Below, in pieces: positions 1-8,036 of a DNA stretch of 11,865 nt. Below the pieces are notes generated by a model, which worked only from the letters and a program-made list of their open reading frames with translations, had not been told where the DNA came from and did not search any database. The position numbers and the translations under genes were made by a program. Position 1 is the stretch's first letter. Each line of letters opens with the position of its first letter. Source of the DNA: a virus (Duplodnaviria > Heunggongvirae > Uroviricota > Caudoviricetes); IMG/VR virus record IMGVR_UViG_2703718850_000008. One strand, 5' to 3'.

Positions 1-1322
1 TTACCAGCCTACAGCAATACCCCCTCCGATTACTGCTCCATCAGTATTATTCCATGAAGACGATGCACGAATATTGGTGTTTTCATTAAGTTTGTATTGA
101 ACACCAACAGCTACTGCATTACCGTTTCTATAGTTACCAACCCCAACGCCGGCACTAAATGTCTGGTTATTCACATACGGGATATTGGTCATTGCTGCTA
201 CGGAAGCAATACCTGCATTAGCTTTTTTAGCATTAGCTTCTATCTTATCATTCAGCTGCTTAAATGTTGAATTTATCTTCCCATTAATTTGGTTAAATTT
301 TGTATCAGTATATGCGAATGATTCTTGTTTTGCTGATTGTATGTTTTTATTAATAACACCGTTATTTTTCGTAACTTCCTGATCAGTGTATGCCATTGAT
401 TCGCTTTTGGCATTATTAATATTCTGNNNNNNNNNNNNNNNNNNNNNNNNNNNNNNNNNNNNNNNNNNNNNNNNNNNNNNNNNNNNNNNNNNNNNNNNNN
501 NNNNNNNNNNNNNNNNNNNNNNNNNTTATTAATATTCTGATTTATCACAGCATTATTTTTGGTAACCTGCTGATCTGTATATGCCAGTGATTCATTCTTG
601 GCATTATTGATGTTTTGATTAATTACGGTATTATTTTTAGCTATCTCATTCCCAGTATAATCTTTCAGTTGCTTAACGTTAACACCATCAGTATCCTCAG
701 TACCTGCGGCAACATGGGTCAATTGTCGATTAGTATTACCCGTCCCAAAAGATACACTATACTCTCTGTCAGTTGTACTTCCCCCGCCGATGGCAACACT
801 ATTATTATGTTCAGCCACACTCTGTGAGCCTAGTGAGATGGCATTTTCTGCATTAGATGTAGCCCCTACACCAATAGCTAATGTATCTCCTGCAGTCGCC
901 TGGGCGGAGGAACCAAATGCAACACTGTTTTCCCCGGTTGCTTTAGACGCAGCACCTACACTTGTAGAATTAGCGACTGCCTCACTACCCGCACCATTTG
1001 CTATAGCTGAATCACCGTTTACTTTACTAAATGAACCAATGGCTACCGAGTTATTTCCAACAACATTTGCATTTGCGCCAATAGCTGACGATGAGTTACC
1101 TTGAGATGAAGAATATGAACCAATTGCAGTATTATAGGCTCCTTCGGTTTTTGAAACAGCGCCAATTGTTGTAGAAGAAGAACCTGAAGCATTTGCATAT
1201 GCACCAATAGCTGTCGCATTACTATCAGTTGCCTGGCTATTATCACCGGCATTATAAGAATTATATGCATAAGAATTTGCTGAAACTGTAAATATAACAG
1301 AGGCTACAAATAGTTTTTTCAT
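1..1322 (-). CDS. Trimeric autotransporter adhesin (YadA-like), C-terminus complete, interrupted by assembly gap 427..525 so frame and length across the gap are unknown
   Basis: ATG at 1322..1320 gives MKKLFVASVIFTVSANSYA, a Sec-type signal peptide with AxA-like cleavage site. Head region has repeated NSVAIG / SxAxG-type motifs. Stalk has about 26-aa repeats (YTDQQVTKNNAVINQNINNAKNESLA). The last ~70 aa (GIASVAAMTNIPY...GGGIAVGW, stop at 3..1) look like a YadA-type membrane anchor ending in an aromatic residue. The ORF-track start at 1364 is a TTG upstream of the signal peptide and is not preferred. Confidence 0.8.
250..700 (-). repeat. Tandem in-frame coding repeats (about 78 nt / 26 aa) of the adhesin stalk
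   Basis: Near-identical nucleotide blocks at 412..426, 526..540 and, diverged, 603..618 (78-nt offset between the last two). Protein repeats NINNAK(N/S)ES(L/M)AYTDQ(Q/E)VTKNN(A/G)VIN occur on both sides of the gap. Boundaries are approximate. Confidence 0.6.
427..525. other. Assembly gap (run of 99 N) inside the adhesin coding sequence
   Basis: Uninterrupted N run. Both flanks carry the same repeat (ATTATTAATATTCTG at 412..426 and 526..540), consistent with a collapse or scaffold join inside a tandem repeat. Confidence 0.95.
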
Positions 1323-1900
1323 AGAAATGACGTATGTTAAATAGATTGAAAAGATAAGATTCAAATCAATTAAATGACGCTTTAAAAATAAGCGGCAGGA
1401 TTTTATTCATCTGATAAAAATAGCGCAAGAGTTGTCTTATATGGAATATTCAGATAAGTCTTATTGAAAAAAACGGTATAACAAATACATAACATTACGG
1501 CCATTATACATACATTATAAAAATTACAGAGATATTTAATTAAATCCAAAGCATTTTTTCAATATGGATTTCGAAGAACTTGTTATAGTACATTAATCAA
1601 TCAATTATTGGTATTTCGCTCACTGTTCATATAGTTTTAATACATCAATGCATAAGAACATTTTCTCATTCATAAAAGCGATAAAAACTGTTGTACCTTA
1701 TATTGTTAATGTTTGGTAACAAAGACAAATCCAACAAGGCATTGATCATCCCCTATGATACCCATAGAAAGAATTATCTGACATATAATAACGATATAAA
1801 GTATATTATTGCTAATGAAACTATATGATAGCTTCACATTCAGCAATACCTGCTCAACCTTATCTCTGGAAATGAACATTGCTAACTTTCCTACTCCTTA
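1323..1900 (-). promoter_or_regulatory. Long AT-rich non-coding leader upstream of the adhesin gene, presumed promoter/regulatory region
   Basis: About 0.58 kb with no ORF of note on either strand and strongly AT-rich runs. No specific -35/-10 could be fixed by eye. Confidence 0.3.
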
Positions 1901-2118
1901 ATCCTTCTCCCAGAGCGCATCATCCACACCGACAATCCCCTCAGGCATCAGCCAGGTGACATTTTCCGCTAATGGGCTGGTTCAGAGATAAATAGTGCGT
2001 CCCCGGAAGCCAAGTCAAGGAGCATTTTTCCCCTGTGACCTTCAACGGCTACTTACTGTTTAAAAACAGCTACGATGCCAGCATAGATACTCTTGAATAC
2101 GATGTACTACGTTTTTTC

Positions 2119-2849
2119 TTATTCTGGACTGAACTCCCTAACCTGCTTCAAATCCAGGAGATTGCTCAGTTCCTCTTTCATTTCACGCTGATGACGATAA
2201 ATCTCATTATTGCGATCAACCTGCGCCATAGCTGCAGCCAGCTCCTCCAGTTCCGTCATCGACAGTTTCACCTGCTGATTATCAGCATCACTCCATGTCA
2301 TAACGTCCCACTGCCCTGAGTTAGCCCCTGCAGCCATTACCACCGGGTAAAGGCGGGCCAGCGAGTCGGGGCCGCCATTCCAGGTGTGTCCGTTCCATTC
2401 GAATGTGAACGGCTGCGCTTCCTGTTCTGTGCGCCACACCTCGATTTCCCGCTTTCTGGCATCCTTTCCCACGGCGATAAGTTCTGGCGTGACGGTGAAC
2501 GCAGGGCTGTCCAGTGGCGCTTTTGTTTTCGTCTCGTCCATGACGGTTTTGACAGCCTTTGGCGTGGCTGCCAGTACTTCGCTGTCGTTGTCTGTATCAC
2601 TACAGAGTTGCGCCAGACCTTTTTTGTCGTGGAAGCATTGCTTCCCTTCAGATCATCAACTATCCATTGCGCCTCGTCCCTGTGCTGTTTCGCGCTCTGC
2701 TGCGCCTGCACCACAGTTTCCTGTCACCACGTCGGCAACTGTGCGCATCACACCTCTGAGGTGTTTACCCGGGATTTCAGAGTTATGTGGCATCCGTACA
2801 TGGGGATGCCTGCGCCATCAATCAGCGCACCTGATATCACTACAGACAT
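2119..2849 (-). pseudogene. Remnant of a side tail fibre (Stf-like) gene: short N-terminal ORF, frame disruption, then a C-terminal ORF in another frame
   Basis: ATG at 2849..2847 encodes MSVVISGALIDGAGIPMYGCHITLKSRVNTSEV and then TGA at 2750..2748; this resembles the lambda-type Stf N-terminus as I recall it (MAVKISGVLKDGTGKPVQNCTIQLKARRNS...). In another frame, open from 2652 to the stop at 2119, the translation contains SEVLAATPKAVKTVMDETKTKAPLDSPAFT, matching the LAATPKAVK..MDET..KAPL.SPA motif of Stf/P2 gpH-type fibres. The ORF-track call 2119..2541 is only the part after an internal Met. The total span is far shorter than an intact fibre gene. Confidence 0.55.
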
Positions 2850-2872
2850 AGTTTTTCTCGCGATAAATTAAA

Positions 2873-3418
2873 TCAGGAAGAGGCTTCCAGAGAGACGGGC
2901 CATTCAATGGCGTTATATGAGGATTTATCAGTGATGGTGCTGAAATCCATCGCCTGCAGCGATTTCGCGTAAATGCGGTACGCTTTCAGCTTCTCCCTGT
3001 CGTCGTCACTGATTAATCCCAGCAGCAGGTCTTTTTCCCATTCGCTGGTCATGATGCTGACCCGTTGTAACAGGGCATCGCGCTCATCTTCCGCTTTAAG
3101 TTTGTAGTCGAAGACAAATTTATCGTCGCGGTAAAACCAGTAACCAGGCACGGTAATACGGCGGTTAGCGGTAATATCAGGAACTTCAATAACACTGGCG
3201 TTACGGGGTTCAATGCCTGTCACATCCTTACCGACCCATACCACGCGCCCGTCTCCGGTGTAAACCATTTTTATGGTGTCACTGGCAAAATTTTTCAGCT
3301 CTTCATACCAGTTTTGGTCATCTTCCGAAAAAAGCCAGGTGATACCATGTTGTTTTGTCATCTGATATTGTTCTGCGGTTTTCGGATTGCCTGCAGTAAT
3401 ATTTTTTAAATGCAACAT
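2873..3418 (-). CDS. Tail fibre assembly protein (Tfa, P2 gpG-like)
   Basis: N-terminus MLHLKNITAGNPKTAEQYQMTKQHGITWLFSEDDQNWYEELKNF...VIEVPDITANRR closely follows the conserved Tfa/gpG N-terminal domain as I recall it. The ATG lies 2 nt after the tail fibre stop, and the gene sits directly downstream of the fibre gene. Confidence 0.85.
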   Translation of the reverse strand: MLHLKNITAGNPKTAEQYQMTKQHGITWLFSEDDQNWYEELKNFASDTIKMVYTGDGRVVWVGKDVTGIEPRNASVIEVPDITANRRITVPGYWFYRDDKFVFDYKLKAEDERDALLQRVSIMTSEWEKDLLLGLISDDDREKLKAYRIYAKSLQAMDFSTITDKSSYNAIEWPVSLEASS

Positions 3419-3420
3419 TG

Positions 3421-4974
3421 TTAAACACTCGCCACGTTATACCAGGTGCCGTTAATCAGTTTCTGAAGCGGTCGGTAATACACGCCGTTGACGTTATCCG
3501 CTGAATTTTTACCAGTATCCGATATCGATATCCCTGACAATCCGTGTCCCGCAGGAGCGTGATATGTCCAAGAGATTACATTGCTGCCAGGTTTGTAATA
3601 CATTTCGGAACCATAGCGCACATCCTGCACGCCGCCATTTCGCTGCTGATAACGGGCATCGAAATTTCCATAGTTTGATGGGGTCATCTGTCCGTTTACA
3701 GCGAATGTGATACTGCCATCGGTATTTCTCTGGCTGTAAAAATGCCAGCCGGAATCATCACCAAGCTCTGCAACTACAGGTCGGGATGAATTACCCCATA
3801 AATTAAACGTTGCGTTTTTCGTGGAGTTGTTGGCGCTGGATAACGTGAATTTTTTAGCATTTCCGGCCTGAATATTTTTTAACGCTATCGCCACACCATT
3901 CTGGAAACGAAATACATGCTGTCCATTCGCATAAACATCCAGAATGCCGTCGCCGTTTTGTTTTATACCTGTATCGTTATCCCCGAAAGCAATTGAGTTT
4001 CCGCCCAGCGCGTTCTGAACGCCGATACCCAGTGCACCATTGACCTGAGAACCACCGCCAACAGACACTTTATGCGACATGGATATCTCTCCTGTCCGCA
4101 AATTAATGGTGAGCGGACGCAGGGGACCAATATCTCCATTCTCGCCCTGACCTTCACTAGTAGGGATAAGGTGCAGGCACTCTTCAGAACGGCGAAAAAT
4201 AAGGCCAAAAGCCTCGTTAAAAATCCTCAATGCATTAACACCACGTATTTTCAGCTCCCCGGTCATCAAATCACCAGATTTTTTTACATATCGCAGATCA
4301 AAATCTGAATAGATATTGCCGGGGTTTATCACACTGAAATAGCTTTTCTCGCTATCAAGAAGGCAAATCAAAGGAATACCCTTAATGATATCATTCGCTA
4401 CCAGCTCGGACTTGTTCCCCTTATAAAGTGGGAACGTACCAAGAACCTTTCCGCCTAGTGTTAGTTGAAGTGTCGCCGCGTTGGTATTGTTCTGAACGGG
4501 GAAAACTATAATCGGGGTTCGTAGCGTCCAATCTGTACCTCCATTAACAAAAAACGTCGAGGGAAGTTCCAGCGTCAGTGCGTTTGCAGTGCCACCAGTA
4601 ACACCCGCAATATAATGACCGCTCTGAAGCTGCGCTATCTGTACGAAATAGTTTTCCGAACCACGCGTGGCAAAGTTAGCCACAACATCATTAAGGGACC
4701 AACCTTTCGCGGTTGTTCCTTCCTGCCCACGAATGACTTTCAACACATCACCGCTTACCGATACCAAGTGACAAATCTCAAATGCAGACTCTTTATTATC
4801 GGTAAGCGTAATTTTTGCATAGACGCGTTGCCCGTTCGATTTATTTTCAAAATCGGCAGAAAGCAATTTTGCAAATTTAGCCCCTGTACCGGGCATTACC
4901 GGAATATCAGTCTGAATCGTGGTGATATCACCAGCCAGTACTGAAACAACGTTATTGCCGAACCCAAGAATCAT
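3421..4974 (-). CDS. Tail fibre protein (C-terminal region like P2 gpH-type receptor-binding region; N-terminus distinct)
   Basis: 517 aa. The C-terminal ~150 aa (NALGGNSIAFGDNDTGIKQNGDGILDVYANGQHVFRFQNGVAIALKNIQAGNAKKFTLSS...RPVVAELGDDSGWHFYSQRNTDGSITFAVNGQMTPSNYGNFDARY...INGTWYNVASV) match the conserved C-terminal block of P2 H-type fibres as recalled. The start codon overlaps the upstream gene stop (ATGA at 4971..4974). Confidence 0.85.
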   Translation of the reverse strand: MILGFGNNVVSVLAGDITTIQTDIPVMPGTGAKFAKLLSADFENKSNGQRVYAKITLTDNKESAFEICHLVSVSGDVLKVIRGQEGTTAKGWSLNDVVANFATRGSENYFVQIAQLQSGHYIAGVTGGTANALTLELPSTFFVNGGTDWTLRTPIIVFPVQNNTNAATLQLTLGGKVLGTFPLYKGNKSELVANDIIKGIPLICLLDSEKSYFSVINPGNIYSDFDLRYVKKSGDLMTGELKIRGVNALRIFNEAFGLIFRRSEECLHLIPTSEGQGENGDIGPLRPLTINLRTGEISMSHKVSVGGGSQVNGALGIGVQNALGGNSIAFGDNDTGIKQNGDGILDVYANGQHVFRFQNGVAIALKNIQAGNAKKFTLSSANNSTKNATFNLWGNSSRPVVAELGDDSGWHFYSQRNTDGSITFAVNGQMTPSNYGNFDARYQQRNGGVQDVRYGSEMYYKPGSNVISWTYHAPAGHGLSGISISDTGKNSADNVNGVYYRPLQKLINGTWYNVASV

Positions 4975-5597
4975 TTTTGAATCACCGTTGTTGCATAAGA
5001 ATAAATAAAAGGGAGTTTTACATATTTCTGGTCAATGGCATCTTTCAGAAAATAGCCTATACCATCACCATATTCTGGTATATGAATAGAAAAAACACTG
5101 TCCGACACAGTCACGCTCACATCAAAAGTGTGCTGCAACGGCGGGTCTATTCCGTTTTTCCCATGAATGAACCGTGCCACACGGCGCTTTAACCAGTCAA
5201 TGCAGAAATGCGAACCGTCAGCCTTATAAAAATTCCAAGTTAATATTCGCTTGAAATAATCATCCGGAACATACGATGCCTGCCCCGGAACATAATTCCG
5301 CATTGCCGCATAAGGGATTGTATTGTATTCAATGGTATCGTATGCGCCGCGTGCAATAGCCTCCTCGGAAACCTGTAGTAAAGGCCTTTCAACGCCATAA
5401 ATCCCGAGAGCAATCCAGTCCAGCAATTGCCCGGTTATTGATTCCGATGTCCAGCATGGCAATGCCAGATTGTTGAGTGAATCGAGGTATTCCTGAGCAA
5501 TTTCATTGTATGCATCAAAGAACGCAACAACATTCGGATCATCTCTGTACTGCACAAACGGATAAGCAGGGAGAATTTTTTCAGTCAGATATTGCAT
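4971..5597 (-). CDS. Tail/baseplate protein in the gpI position (I-like, DUF2313-type by position)
   Basis: Start taken at the ATG at 5597..5595 (MQYLTEKILPAYP...) rather than the ORF-track start at 5705, because the upstream part of that ORF overlaps the J-like gene. The stop overlaps the fibre start. It lies between the J-like gene and the tail fibre, as in P2 (J-I-H) and Mu (gp47-gp48-fibre). Family assigned by position and size only. Confidence 0.5.
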   Translation of the reverse strand: MQYLTEKILPAYPFVQYRDDPNVVAFFDAYNEIAQEYLDSLNNLALPCWTSESITGQLLDWIALGIYGVERPLLQVSEEAIARGAYDTIEYNTIPYAAMRNYVPGQASYVPDDYFKRILTWNFYKADGSHFCIDWLKRRVARFIHGKNGIDPPLQHTFDVSVTVSDSVFSIHIPEYGDGIGYFLKDAIDQKYVKLPFIYSYATTVIQK

Positions 5598-6807
5598 ACT
5601 TGTTAACTTGAACCTGTGATGCCACTGTCGAAAAATAGGAATAGGTATCGCCATAAACCAGGCTTGTGTCTTTTGCCGGAAGAACAATATGACCATTAAT
5701 GCCAATGCTCACACTGATTGTTGAGATCAACGTCGCATCAACCAGCAACCTGACAGAACTGGTAAAAATATCCTGGATACGCAGAAGATTTATCGGGTGT
5801 CCGACTTCAATTGAATTGATGTAATCAGCAACGTTTTGCTGCACAGCCATAGCAATACCCGCCGGATCAACATAATCATCAGACACCGTGTTCCAGGTGA
5901 TTAGCACCATGACGTTTTGTGATGACGGGATAACGAACGGCACCTGATAAACGTCCGGCGAAACGGTTATTGAAACCGTGCGTTTTTCCACTGCCGCACC
6001 GGATGGATTGCTTACATCGTTGGTCAGTTTCGAAATATCCGGTACAGATTTGTAAATCGCATAAGCCACATCATACGGATCACCGCCACCAACAACCGCA
6101 ACCCATTTCCCCAGCGACGACTGCCGGAAAGAAATCAGGTTTTCTCGCACACCGCTTACTGATTTGAGCATCGCTTTATAGCAATCCGGTGTTCCCTGCA
6201 CACCAAACATACCGGACTCCATGACTTCGGCGCGGTAAGATGCCCACGTCTGCGCCTCCTGACCTGGCATCCCTGCGGTAAGGTTCGTGCATTTTACAGG
6301 CTGGTCTTTTGGTACTGAGGTAATAACCTGCGTCACAGTCCCTTCCGGTACAGCCCATGAGCCTGACGTTGTGGCCACACAGTAGACTGGTTCAGTCTGC
6401 CCACTTTCCGGCACCACCGTATCGCGGGAAACTGCATACTGGTAGTTGCCATCACCGACAACAAATCCTTTAGGGATACCAAACCCCGGCAACGCCTCAA
6501 ATACCACGTATACCGCCGTATTTGTACTTAATCCCTTCTGTGCTCCATAAATGTTTCCGAGTTGCATCAGTAACGGAATATTTGCGCCGTATGGGCTTAC
6601 GGAGTTAATAAGGTCCACCCGCGCCTGGTCTATTAATGCCAGCGCCCCGACTGCCGTGCTGGCAAGGTCAGTAATAAGCCCCGCCGGAAGGTTGGCTGTA
6701 TATCCAGGTACTTTTTCAGCAACTCTGATGATAAGATTTGCAAGCAAATCATTGGGTGGCGTAGGCTGCGCCCCCGCACTGGTCATAGTAATTGGTATTT
6801 CTGACAT
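5581..6807 (-). CDS. Baseplate wedge protein, J-like (P2 gpJ / Mu gp47 position)
   Basis: 408-aa ORF with ATG at 6807 preceded by GGAG (6816..6813) at 5-nt spacing. It overlaps the I-like start by 17 nt and sits immediately upstream of the I-like and fibre genes. Assignment is mainly by synteny and size; sequence similarity was not verified. Confidence 0.5.
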   Translation of the reverse strand: MSEIPITMTSAGAQPTPPNDLLANLIIRVAEKVPGYTANLPAGLITDLASTAVGALALIDQARVDLINSVSPYGANIPLLMQLGNIYGAQKGLSTNTAVYVVFEALPGFGIPKGFVVGDGNYQYAVSRDTVVPESGQTEPVYCVATTSGSWAVPEGTVTQVITSVPKDQPVKCTNLTAGMPGQEAQTWASYRAEVMESGMFGVQGTPDCYKAMLKSVSGVRENLISFRQSSLGKWVAVVGGGDPYDVAYAIYKSVPDISKLTNDVSNPSGAAVEKRTVSITVSPDVYQVPFVIPSSQNVMVLITWNTVSDDYVDPAGIAMAVQQNVADYINSIEVGHPINLLRIQDIFTSSVRLLVDATLISTISVSIGINGHIVLPAKDTSLVYGDTYSYFSTVASQVQVNKYAISD

Positions 6808-6847: not shown

Positions 6848-8008
6848 TTATTCAACCTCTTCTAAACTGCTCACTCTGGACCCTCGGCGGAAATTATCAT
6901 CATTTTTAACATACTCGTATGAATCCAGAATCAAACCAGATATGCGAAGTATATCTTCCGGATTAGTTATATGTATCCTTTTACCATCCGTATCAAGTCG
7001 AGCTCGTCTTATTTCATTCAACTGAACTTCACTAAGCGAAATAGGTAAAGTTATAAATGAAGATTTTTTATCATAAAATCTTAACAGCCATCTATTAGTT
7101 TTACCATTCAATAGCACACCAAAATATGACTCAGTATCTTTATATTCTATATTATCTTCTGTTTGTATGATTTGTTTTACCCTTTCAAATAGCTCCAATT
7201 CTTTGGCTGTGGTTATTATGTTGGGGTTTTCTTCATCAACAATGGCGTTATTAACTTGTGTATCCGTTGCATCATTTTCTTTAGTTTGCTCTACCGGTTG
7301 TGTAGATAGCCCGGAAACCACCATTGCGCTAACAGCGCGCTCAACGGCCTGTTTAACTAATGGAGTCACGAACTCAAGAAATCTCTGATTAAGTTGTCTC
7401 TCAATATTTGAACGACTAGCAACATATCGAACAAACTCCAGATCAACTTCACGAAGACTAGAACTGATTGTTTTAGTAAATGAATTCAAATAAACACTTT
7501 CTTCAGCCAGTGTCCGTAAAGCCTCTGGTTTGAATTTATCATAACGAAAACGAAATAATTGTGTAATATCGGAGTGAGTTAGAGAATCCATTCTTATTTT
7601 TAAAAACGGCGTTGAATCCATTATGTTTTTTTGTTTCAAATCCGTAAAAAAACGCCATTCAACACCATTTGTAATGGCTGATATAGTAACTTCCGGTGTT
7701 GAATTAAAATATCTTGATAGCTGTGGGCAGTGATTATCAATTTGTTCTGAAAACGATTTCGCCTCAATGAACATCACAGGAACATCATGACAAAATAAAG
7801 CGTAATCAACCCGTTCATTAGCCTTAACCCCGGGGAAGTCAGCACTATACTCAGCTTTGACTTTTCTTGGATCATACGGAGTAAAACCAAGAATATCTAG
7901 TAATGGCATAATGAGTGCTTGTTTTGTCGTTTCTTCAGTTGTACAAAACACCCCCATTTTTGCAACATGCTCTGTGTGTATTTTTAACTTATTTGCAAAA
8001 TTTTCCAT
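6848..8008 (-). CDS. PD-(D/E)xK nuclease with HsdR-N-terminal-like domain plus uncharacterised C-terminal domain; prophage cargo (moron), candidate defence/exclusion protein
   Basis: Start taken at the ATG at 8008..8006 (MENFANKLK...) because GGAGGAG lies 6 nt upstream; the in-frame ATG at 8023 has no SD. The N-terminal ~150 aa carry TEETTKQALIMPLLDILGF...ERVDYALF...VMFIEAKS, i.e. the E...D...EAK pattern and the LIxPxLxxLG motif typical of type I restriction HsdR N-terminal-like PD-(D/E)xK domains. The coding sequence is visibly more AT-rich than the flanking tail genes and is followed by its own terminator. Confidence 0.7.
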   Translation of the reverse strand: MENFANKLKIHTEHVAKMGVFCTTEETTKQALIMPLLDILGFTPYDPRKVKAEYSADFPGVKANERVDYALFCHDVPVMFIEAKSFSEQIDNHCPQLSRYFNSTPEVTISAITNGVEWRFFTDLKQKNIMDSTPFLKIRMDSLTHSDITQLFRFRYDKFKPEALRTLAEESVYLNSFTKTISSSLREVDLEFVRYVASRSNIERQLNQRFLEFVTPLVKQAVERAVSAMVVSGLSTQPVEQTKENDATDTQVNNAIVDEENPNIITTAKELELFERVKQIIQTEDNIEYKDTESYFGVLLNGKTNRWLLRFYDKKSSFITLPISLSEVQLNEIRRARLDTDGKRIHITNPEDILRISGLILDSYEYVKNDDNFRRGSRVSSLEEVE

Positions 8009-8036
8009 GCTTGTCTCCTCCATGGTAACAATATGT

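Follow-up and report, generated by a model that had tools for sequence, protein, structure and literature searches.

The window, by which we mean the whole stretch of DNA analysed (11,865 nt; IMG/VR record IMGVR_UViG_2703718850_000008), represents the right end of a full-length E. coli prophage that resembles Rac-SA53. A segment of 851 nt spanning the gene relic described below has a 100% match in five complete E. coli chromosomes, among them EC11, where the locus forms the right end of a prophage of ~49 kb that extends from intR/xisR beside ttcA to the att core beside uspF/ompN. The integration site of the EC11 prophage is the classical rac site (ttcA/uspF). Its gene content includes recET, racR, and genes for replication, lysis, terminase, head, tail and baseplate; there are almost no pseudogenes elsewhere in it, and it is otherwise full length from intR to the fibres. 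All window genes treated here, from baseplate J to the YadA-like gene, are on the minus strand, and the main features are as follows:

6848-8023, minus strand: HSDR_N-domain protein, 391 aa (PGAP 'type I restriction endonuclease'; phrog_4225 endonuclease)
5581-6807, minus strand: baseplate J
elsewhere in the window, minus strand: baseplate-associated protein, 208 aa
3421..4974, minus strand: first tail fibre, intact, 517 aa (phrog_6859 and phrog_454, tail fibre; intact in the EC11 annotation)
2873..3418, minus strand: Tfa of the first fibre, intact, 181 aa (PF02413, E 6.4e-22; phrog_136)
2748..2849, minus strand: 5' remnant of an stf gene (stf'), with an ATG at 2849-2847, 33 codons and a premature TGA at 2750-2748
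2119..2616, minus strand: chimeric open frame joining the stf collar motif to the DUF4376 C-terminal domain, 140 aa from its sole ATG (2541) or 165 aa from PGAP's CTG (2616)
1937..2103, minus strand: fragment of a tfa gene (tfa'), the middle third of a TfaR-type assembly gene (K-12 TfaR residues ~45-117), frameshifted and interrupted by an internal stop
1-1364, minus strand: YadA-like trimeric autotransporter adhesin gene, with a PF03895 anchor at its 3' end

The HSDR_N-domain protein sits amid the baseplate genes. Its slot is a variable moron slot, since Rac-SA53 and phage vB_Apl-pPE4 carry an antirepressor and hypothetical genes there on the opposite strand. PADLOC returned no match for this endonuclease or for the chimeric frame. 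The YadA-like gene is broken in the window by a masked stretch of 99 N (427-525) and is a single 454-aa CDS in EC11; because the att core lies past it, the adhesin is prophage cargo. YadA-like cargo is likewise found downstream of a lambdoid prophage in strain A2. The spacer between tfa' and the adhesin gene (1350-1900) is AT-rich, with a GC content of 26-27%, and holds the region's only promoter-like sites and its one 16-nt inverted repeat. The foreign adhesin cargo is probably regulated from this spacer.

The natural stf start lies 23 nt downstream of the Tfa stop. Translation from the ATG at 2849-2847 gives MSVVISGALIDGAGIPMYGCHITLKSRVNTSEV and then TGA, and the 33-residue product matches positions 1-33 of PF08400, the prophage tail fibre N-terminal family of lambda Stf (E 3.9e-11, Pfam), as expected from the initial annotation, which had read a lambda Stf-like N-terminus at this point. 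The remnant is 96.9% identical in nucleotide sequence to the start of the 1044-aa gene of ETEC4085 (L003). Even in a repaired conceptual translation only PF08400 positions 1-50 of 134 are covered, so that the domain is truncated. This Stf anchor occurs in a phage with a baseplate J/gp47-type tail end (2873-6807; L003/L006), not a lambda gpJ tip, and the docking of a PF08400 side fibre on such a tail is not obvious.

Lesions in the relic were mapped on the minus strand against ETEC4085, and the same pattern was seen against Rac-SA53 and pPE4. Intact orthologues at the same position (L003, L006 and L007) all read through the lesion sites, which are:

Lesion 1, 2750..2752 (between 2752 and 2751), minus strand: 1-nt deletion; one G of GTGGTG is gone, which places a TGA in frame
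Lesion 2, 2711..2721, minus strand: junction of a 191-nt deletion; parental imperfect direct repeat GGAAACTGTGGCG / GGAAATGGTGGCG
Lesion 3, 2691..2701, minus strand: junction of an in-frame 303-nt deletion; 11-nt direct repeat AGCAGAGCGCG, two copies
Lesion 4, 2619..2625 (between 2625 and 2624), minus strand: second 1-nt deletion, ACAGAAAAAGG to ACAAAAAAGG
Lesion 5, 2485..2501, minus strand: junction of a 2492-nt deletion; 17-nt near-repeat CGTTCACCG[G/T]CACGCC, present in both genes
2223..2224, minus strand: in-frame 6-nt deletion in the DUF4376 part; one GCGCAG tandem unit is lost, AQAQ to AQ (alignments to L003 and L004)

At lesion 1 the reading is GTG TGA, and intact homologues run on as ...NTSEVVMRTVADVVTGNCGEY... 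A 1-nt deletion near 2750 had been suspected from the sequence, and alignment to L003, L006 and L007 places it exactly; L005, L002 and L010-L013 have this gap too. Lesions 1 and 2 together remove 192 nt and therefore bring the middle piece VQAQQSAKQHRDEAQWIVDDLKGSNASTTKK (~2714-2625) back into the first frame. An island of 35 nt (q179-213) corresponds to L003 4371-4405. Lesion 4 moves the reading to the LAATPKAVK frame, is common to all carriers examined, and creates the heptamer A_AAA_AAG by accident. The conserved motif reported to resume in another frame is indeed there: LAATPKAVKTVMDETKTKAPLDSP is in a different frame from the 33-aa ORF, one that stays open to the TAA at 2121-2119, and the motif belongs to the collar motif/phage tail fibre repeat PF03406 (E 7e-14 on the repaired translation), with StfR residues 465-494 aligning at 63% identity. 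The middle piece, the second 1-nt deletion at 2624/2625, the 191- and 303-nt deletions and the identity of the last ~127 codons, described below, are additions to the initial annotation.

The largest deletion, lesion 5, fuses stf (…APLDSPAFT|) to a DUF4376 gene (|VTPELIA…), joining stf codon ~288 to codon ~63 of the partner. The parental sequences are near-identical at this point, CGTTCACCGGCACGCC in stf (AFTGTP) and CGTTCACCGTCACGCC in the DUF4376 gene (PFTVTP), and the fusion is in frame because both breakpoints (L003 4896 and 7388) are at codon position 2. The junctions of the 191- and 303-nt deletions likewise carry direct repeats, of 11-13 nt, and one junction repeat occurs in the fibre gene as well as in its partner. 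That every large junction carries a short direct repeat (9-13 nt) points to replication slippage or illegitimate recombination. An uninterrupted ORF with a shaft and a C-terminal receptor-binding region is absent from the relic, which is interrupted by a TGA following codon 33, is frameshifted twice, and is short of 191, 303 and 2492 nt when compared with intact genes.

The initial annotation took the ~120-aa C-terminus for that of the fibre. This assignment does not hold, as the last ~127 codons are the 3' two-thirds of the DUF4376 partner gene, a different gene from the fibre. The 140-aa ORF matches PF14301 (DUF4376) over profile positions 3-96 of 106 (E 2.4e-17). Against phrog_1141 the chimeric frame covers positions 63-188 of 194 and the intact partner positions 2-190, and the ~62-aa N-terminal domain of intact partners has no counterpart in the window. 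Residues ~1-60 are strongly conserved in an alignment of 25 intact partners. In an AF2 model of the intact partner (pLDDT 88) the N-terminal residues form a separate beta/alpha domain, and the fusion point falls within the linker. In relatives the DUF4376 gene is a separate gene right after its cognate fibre; here its start is deleted and the rest is fused to stf.

DUF4376 proteins encoded directly after fibre genes are fibre chaperones in distant phages, and those of Alteromonas phages V22 and A5 and of Campylobacter CJIE1-like prophages are experimentally required (PMC7289586, PMC10579305, PMC7882524), with chaperone activity on the fibre demonstrated by experiments on these distant homologues (PMC7289586, PMC7882524). 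By analogy, the DUF4376 partner at this locus may have had a chaperone role, and in related chaperones the N-terminal domain is said to bind the fibre. A PDB sequence search with the intact partner gave no match, a Foldseek search of its AF2 model against the PDB gave nothing at E <= 0.001, and a BFVD search returned other DUF4376 proteins only. Since the PDB gave no match by sequence or by Foldseek, the published likeness of DUF4376 to the TfaMu C-terminus could not be confirmed. PHROG 11571 matches both the N-terminal half of the window's Tfa (2873-3418; profile 15-103) and the DUF4376 part (2119-2541; profile 107-208), which suggests at the level of sequence profiles that DUF4376 may be an alternative C-terminal module of fibre-assembly proteins.

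The intact form of this region is found in relatives, where a fibre and Tfa are followed, in a single orientation, by an Stf-like fibre (1044-1061 aa) and a DUF4376 partner of ~190 aa. In ETEC4085 the same fibre/Tfa pair precedes an Stf-like ORF of 1044 aa and a DUF4376 gene of 190 aa. Phage Rac-SA53 (KU052037; tail1-tail4) has tail3 (1061 aa) and tail4 (187 aa), then attB and uspF, and vB_Apl-pPE4 (L007, PP818812.1) has an Stf-like protein of 667 aa and a DUF4376 partner of 187 aa. No invertase was found in the intact cassettes of these three. As all three carry one, a second fibre cassette is normal in this phage family. The relic is 96-97% identical to intact relatives at the nucleotide level over 190 and 217 nt, far above chance. 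Because relatives have one continuous ORF of 1044-1061 aa at the same position, the two-ORF state is decay and not a programmed arrangement, and the proposal of an internally deleted, frameshifted second fibre gene stands. A literature search on Rac-SA53 returned a passing mention only. The E. coli prophage segment is covered to 74%, at 94% identity, by PP818812.1, a record under the name 'Actinobacillus phage vB_Apl-pPE4' whose stated host looks doubtful.

Downstream of the chimeric frame, tfa' was detected by tblastn with K-12 TfaR as two HSPs in two frames (E 3e-9 and 8e-6). The same search with the window's own Tfa did not detect it, and Pfam gave no match on the stitched translation; PGAP also labels it as a pseudogene. 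The 3' border of the relic is mosaic, and the relevant feature is:

2405..2436, minus strand: crossover zone, a 32-nt overlap defined by segment identities

Between 2900 and 2405 the window shares 99% identity with the L005-type allele; leftwards of 2436 it shares 99-100% with strain A2 (L004), where the same uspF site is occupied by a lambdoid (gpJ) prophage. The A2 prophage carries an intact 188-aa DUF4376 gene, and its 3' half, tfa', YadA-like gene and attR match the right end of the window. The shared right end thus runs from the DUF4376 3' half through the tfa fragment, the AT-rich spacer and the YadA-like adhesin cargo to attR. By these segment identities, a crossover at 2405-2436 ties the relic to a right end that a lambdoid prophage also has, a clean case of unrelated prophages of two types that occupy one att site and have their right end in common. 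The initial annotation suggested that the relic looks like a product of module exchange. This is correct for its 3' border and not for its origin, as a second fibre with a DUF4376 partner is the family standard (tail3/tail4 in Rac-SA53). The further suggestion that the relic could donate sequence by recombination is plausible for other stf/DUF4376 genes, given the real mosaicism at its 3' side; no detectable repeat is shared with the intact first fibre gene.

The junction-bearing allele was present in 15 of 5426 complete genomes. Six carriers were aligned base by base (L002, L005 and L010-L013), and every lesion was present in all of them. The NWU genomes (n=3) match one base short; NWU_3, which was aligned, has an extra 1-nt deletion at 2520. 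In the L005-type allele the sole ATG (2541-2539) has become ACG, with three of its five genomes verified via an identical protein accession. The DUF4376 domain is complete and the frame open in 12 of the 15 carriers. Point differences among carriers within the chimeric frame were five nonsynonymous and two synonymous, which are small numbers; with the one added frameshift and the one lost ATG, they hint at a lack of purifying selection on the remainder. In a protein set of 5.8 billion clusters, no protein spans the frameshift at 2624 and no intermediate allele (fusion without frameshift) was found; junction-spanning proteins there are only 165-166 aa, and normal partners are 187-192 aa. PGAP treats the relic inconsistently: in EC11 it calls two 'intact' CDSs, WP_369698927.1 (33 aa) and WP_024184523.1 (165 aa, CTG start), and in NWU strains a pseudogene. 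The lesion map settles this inconsistency in RefSeq, where the annotation of the relic varies among genomes between CDSs and pseudogenes.

Several other explanations of the locus were weighed. The chimeric frame of 140-165 aa might be a retained functional small protein, acting as an orphan chaperone for the fibres of a co-resident prophage or for the first fibres. The complete Pfam domain, the open frame in most carriers, the lack of a convincing terminator cutting the frame off from the late operon, and the hint from PHROG 11571 that fibre chaperones use DUF4376 as a modular C-terminal unit are all in keeping with this idea. However, the sole ATG is lost in the L005-type allele, NWU_3 is frameshifted 21 nt past that ATG, and direct reading of the sequence shows no Shine-Dalgarno upstream of ATG 2541. 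The conserved N-terminal domain is missing, the substitutions, few as they are, are mostly nonsynonymous, and the first fibre already has its own Tfa; we therefore consider a functional chimera improbable. Programmed recoding, in which a -1 slip at A_AAA_AAG (2625-2619) would join an upstream frame (GTG 2714, with AGGA 4 nt upstream) to the DUF4376 frame, is suggested by the classic dnaX-type heptamer that lesion 4 makes in the zero frame of the upstream piece, from which a -1 slip does enter the chimeric frame. Intact relatives, however, have GAAAAAG and a single ORF, so the heptamer is no older than the lesion and present in the mutant allele only; the RNA fold downstream of it is no better than shuffles (z = 0.00), and the upstream frame begins after two stops and relies on a weak GTG. 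Recoding is highly improbable.

The segment might also be the relic of an invertible host-range switch of the Mu G, P1 C, e14 or K-12 rac pinR type whose invertase was lost, and K-12 Rac does have pinR just past stfR-tfaR at the same chromosomal site. The initial annotation had argued against a switch from the orientation of the segment and the lack of an invertase, and our results agree with it. There is no recombinase ORF in the window, nor between Tfa and attR in EC11, and no inverted repeats flank the segment, the sole one in 1400-5800 being the 16-nt AT-rich pair at 1627-1828. In intact family members both cassettes have the same orientation without an invertase, and all window pieces are on one strand. 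The absence of an invertase and of flanking inverted repeats, with co-oriented intact cassettes, effectively refutes this reading, to which we give almost no weight. Equally negligible is the chance that the frameshifts came from faulty sequencing or assembly of one genome. One single-base deletion does lie in or beside an A run, where such errors are common, but three large deletions cannot be base-calling errors, and error is excluded by the occurrence of the allele in 15 complete genomes from different laboratories and countries, with identical lesions in the six that were aligned.

From comparative sequence analysis, we consider it very likely that 1937-2849 on the minus strand holds three dead gene pieces, including the remains of a decayed second fibre cassette, at the right end of a Rac-SA53-like prophage. 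Points against decay are that PGAP treats the 33-aa and 165-aa frames of EC11 as ordinary CDSs and that 12 of the 15 carriers keep the whole DUF4376 domain open. The ancestor would have had, past its first fibre/Tfa pair, a second cassette for host recognition, consisting of an Stf-like side fibre of ~1050 aa and a DUF4376 partner of ~190 aa. Two single-base deletions and three deletions between direct repeats of 9-13 nt, the large ones presumably arising by replication slippage or illegitimate recombination, destroyed it. The largest of these took the fibre shaft, the receptor-binding end and the partner's conserved N-terminal domain, leaving the remnants fused in frame. Later or earlier, homologous recombination within the DUF4376 part joined the relic to the lambdoid-shared right end. 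There may have been a period when an in-frame Stf-DUF4376 fusion was made. The result is an ordinary pseudogene complex of a known sort, a dead second fibre fused to a DUF4376 tail, plus a tfa fragment.

No convincing terminator was found between Tfa and the relic; the sole terminator-like match, a 5-bp stem that overlaps with the Tfa stop, is also conserved in intact ETEC4085. For this reason the relic is probably co-transcribed with the late operon. A decayed second cassette would make no functional fibre, and virions, if made, would presumably carry the first fibre only. Particles with one of the family's two fibre sets are predicted to have a narrower host range or slower adsorption. We think it unlikely that the relic is not wholly silent, with a small collar-motif and DUF4376 protein serving the fibres of other prophages and a cassette that might be regained by double crossover. 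Such a protein could be made from GTG 2714 with a -1 slip at the heptamer, from CTG 2616, or from ATG 2541, and the stf 5' end beside Tfa and the DUF4376 3' half could serve as crossover arms. E. coli genomes matching the segment have a median of 2 matching places, and up to 11.

The closest analogue is lambda stf (PaPa/lambda-WT versus Ur-lambda), a side-fibre gene of the same PF08400 family that is broken by a frameshift, and the predicted effect on adsorption would have the same relation as between lambda PaPa and Ur-lambda. Hendrix and Duda (1992) are said to give the background on stf in these two phages. In comparison to lambda, the damage in the window is heavier, with two frameshifts and three deletions and ~90% of the gene and part of the chaperone gone; the partner gene is of the DUF4376 type and not lambda Tfa, and the carrier phage has a baseplate J/gp47-type tail instead of a gpJ tip. 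The stf gene of laboratory lambda has a single-base frameshift, such that the primary adsorption device is kept and the side fibres are absent (PMC12617516).

Rac-SA53, ETEC4085 and vB_Apl-pPE4 belong to the same phage family as the window prophage and have the same fibre-Tfa-Stf-DUF4376 order, with 91-97% nucleotide identity in shared parts; the attachment site of Rac-SA53 is on the uspF side, as in the window prophage. Their second cassettes are intact (fibres of 1061, 1044 and 667 aa; partners of 187-190 aa), whereas the window holds a decayed allele and, unlike them, carries a tfa fragment and YadA-like cargo ahead of attR. V22 gp27, A5 gp9 and the CJIE1 H-fibre partner resemble the window's family in having a C-terminal DUF4376 domain and being encoded right after the fibre, but are only distantly related in sequence, and the window copy is without the N-terminal domain and the cognate fibre. 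The right end of the cryptic Rac prophage of K-12 (stfR-tfaR-pinR) lies at the same site beside uspF with the same fibre-at-right-end layout, and tfa' is homologous to TfaR residues 45-117. K-12 Rac has kept intact stfR/tfaR and an invertase gene but few of its other structural genes; the opposite holds for the window prophage, which is near-complete with one dead cassette.
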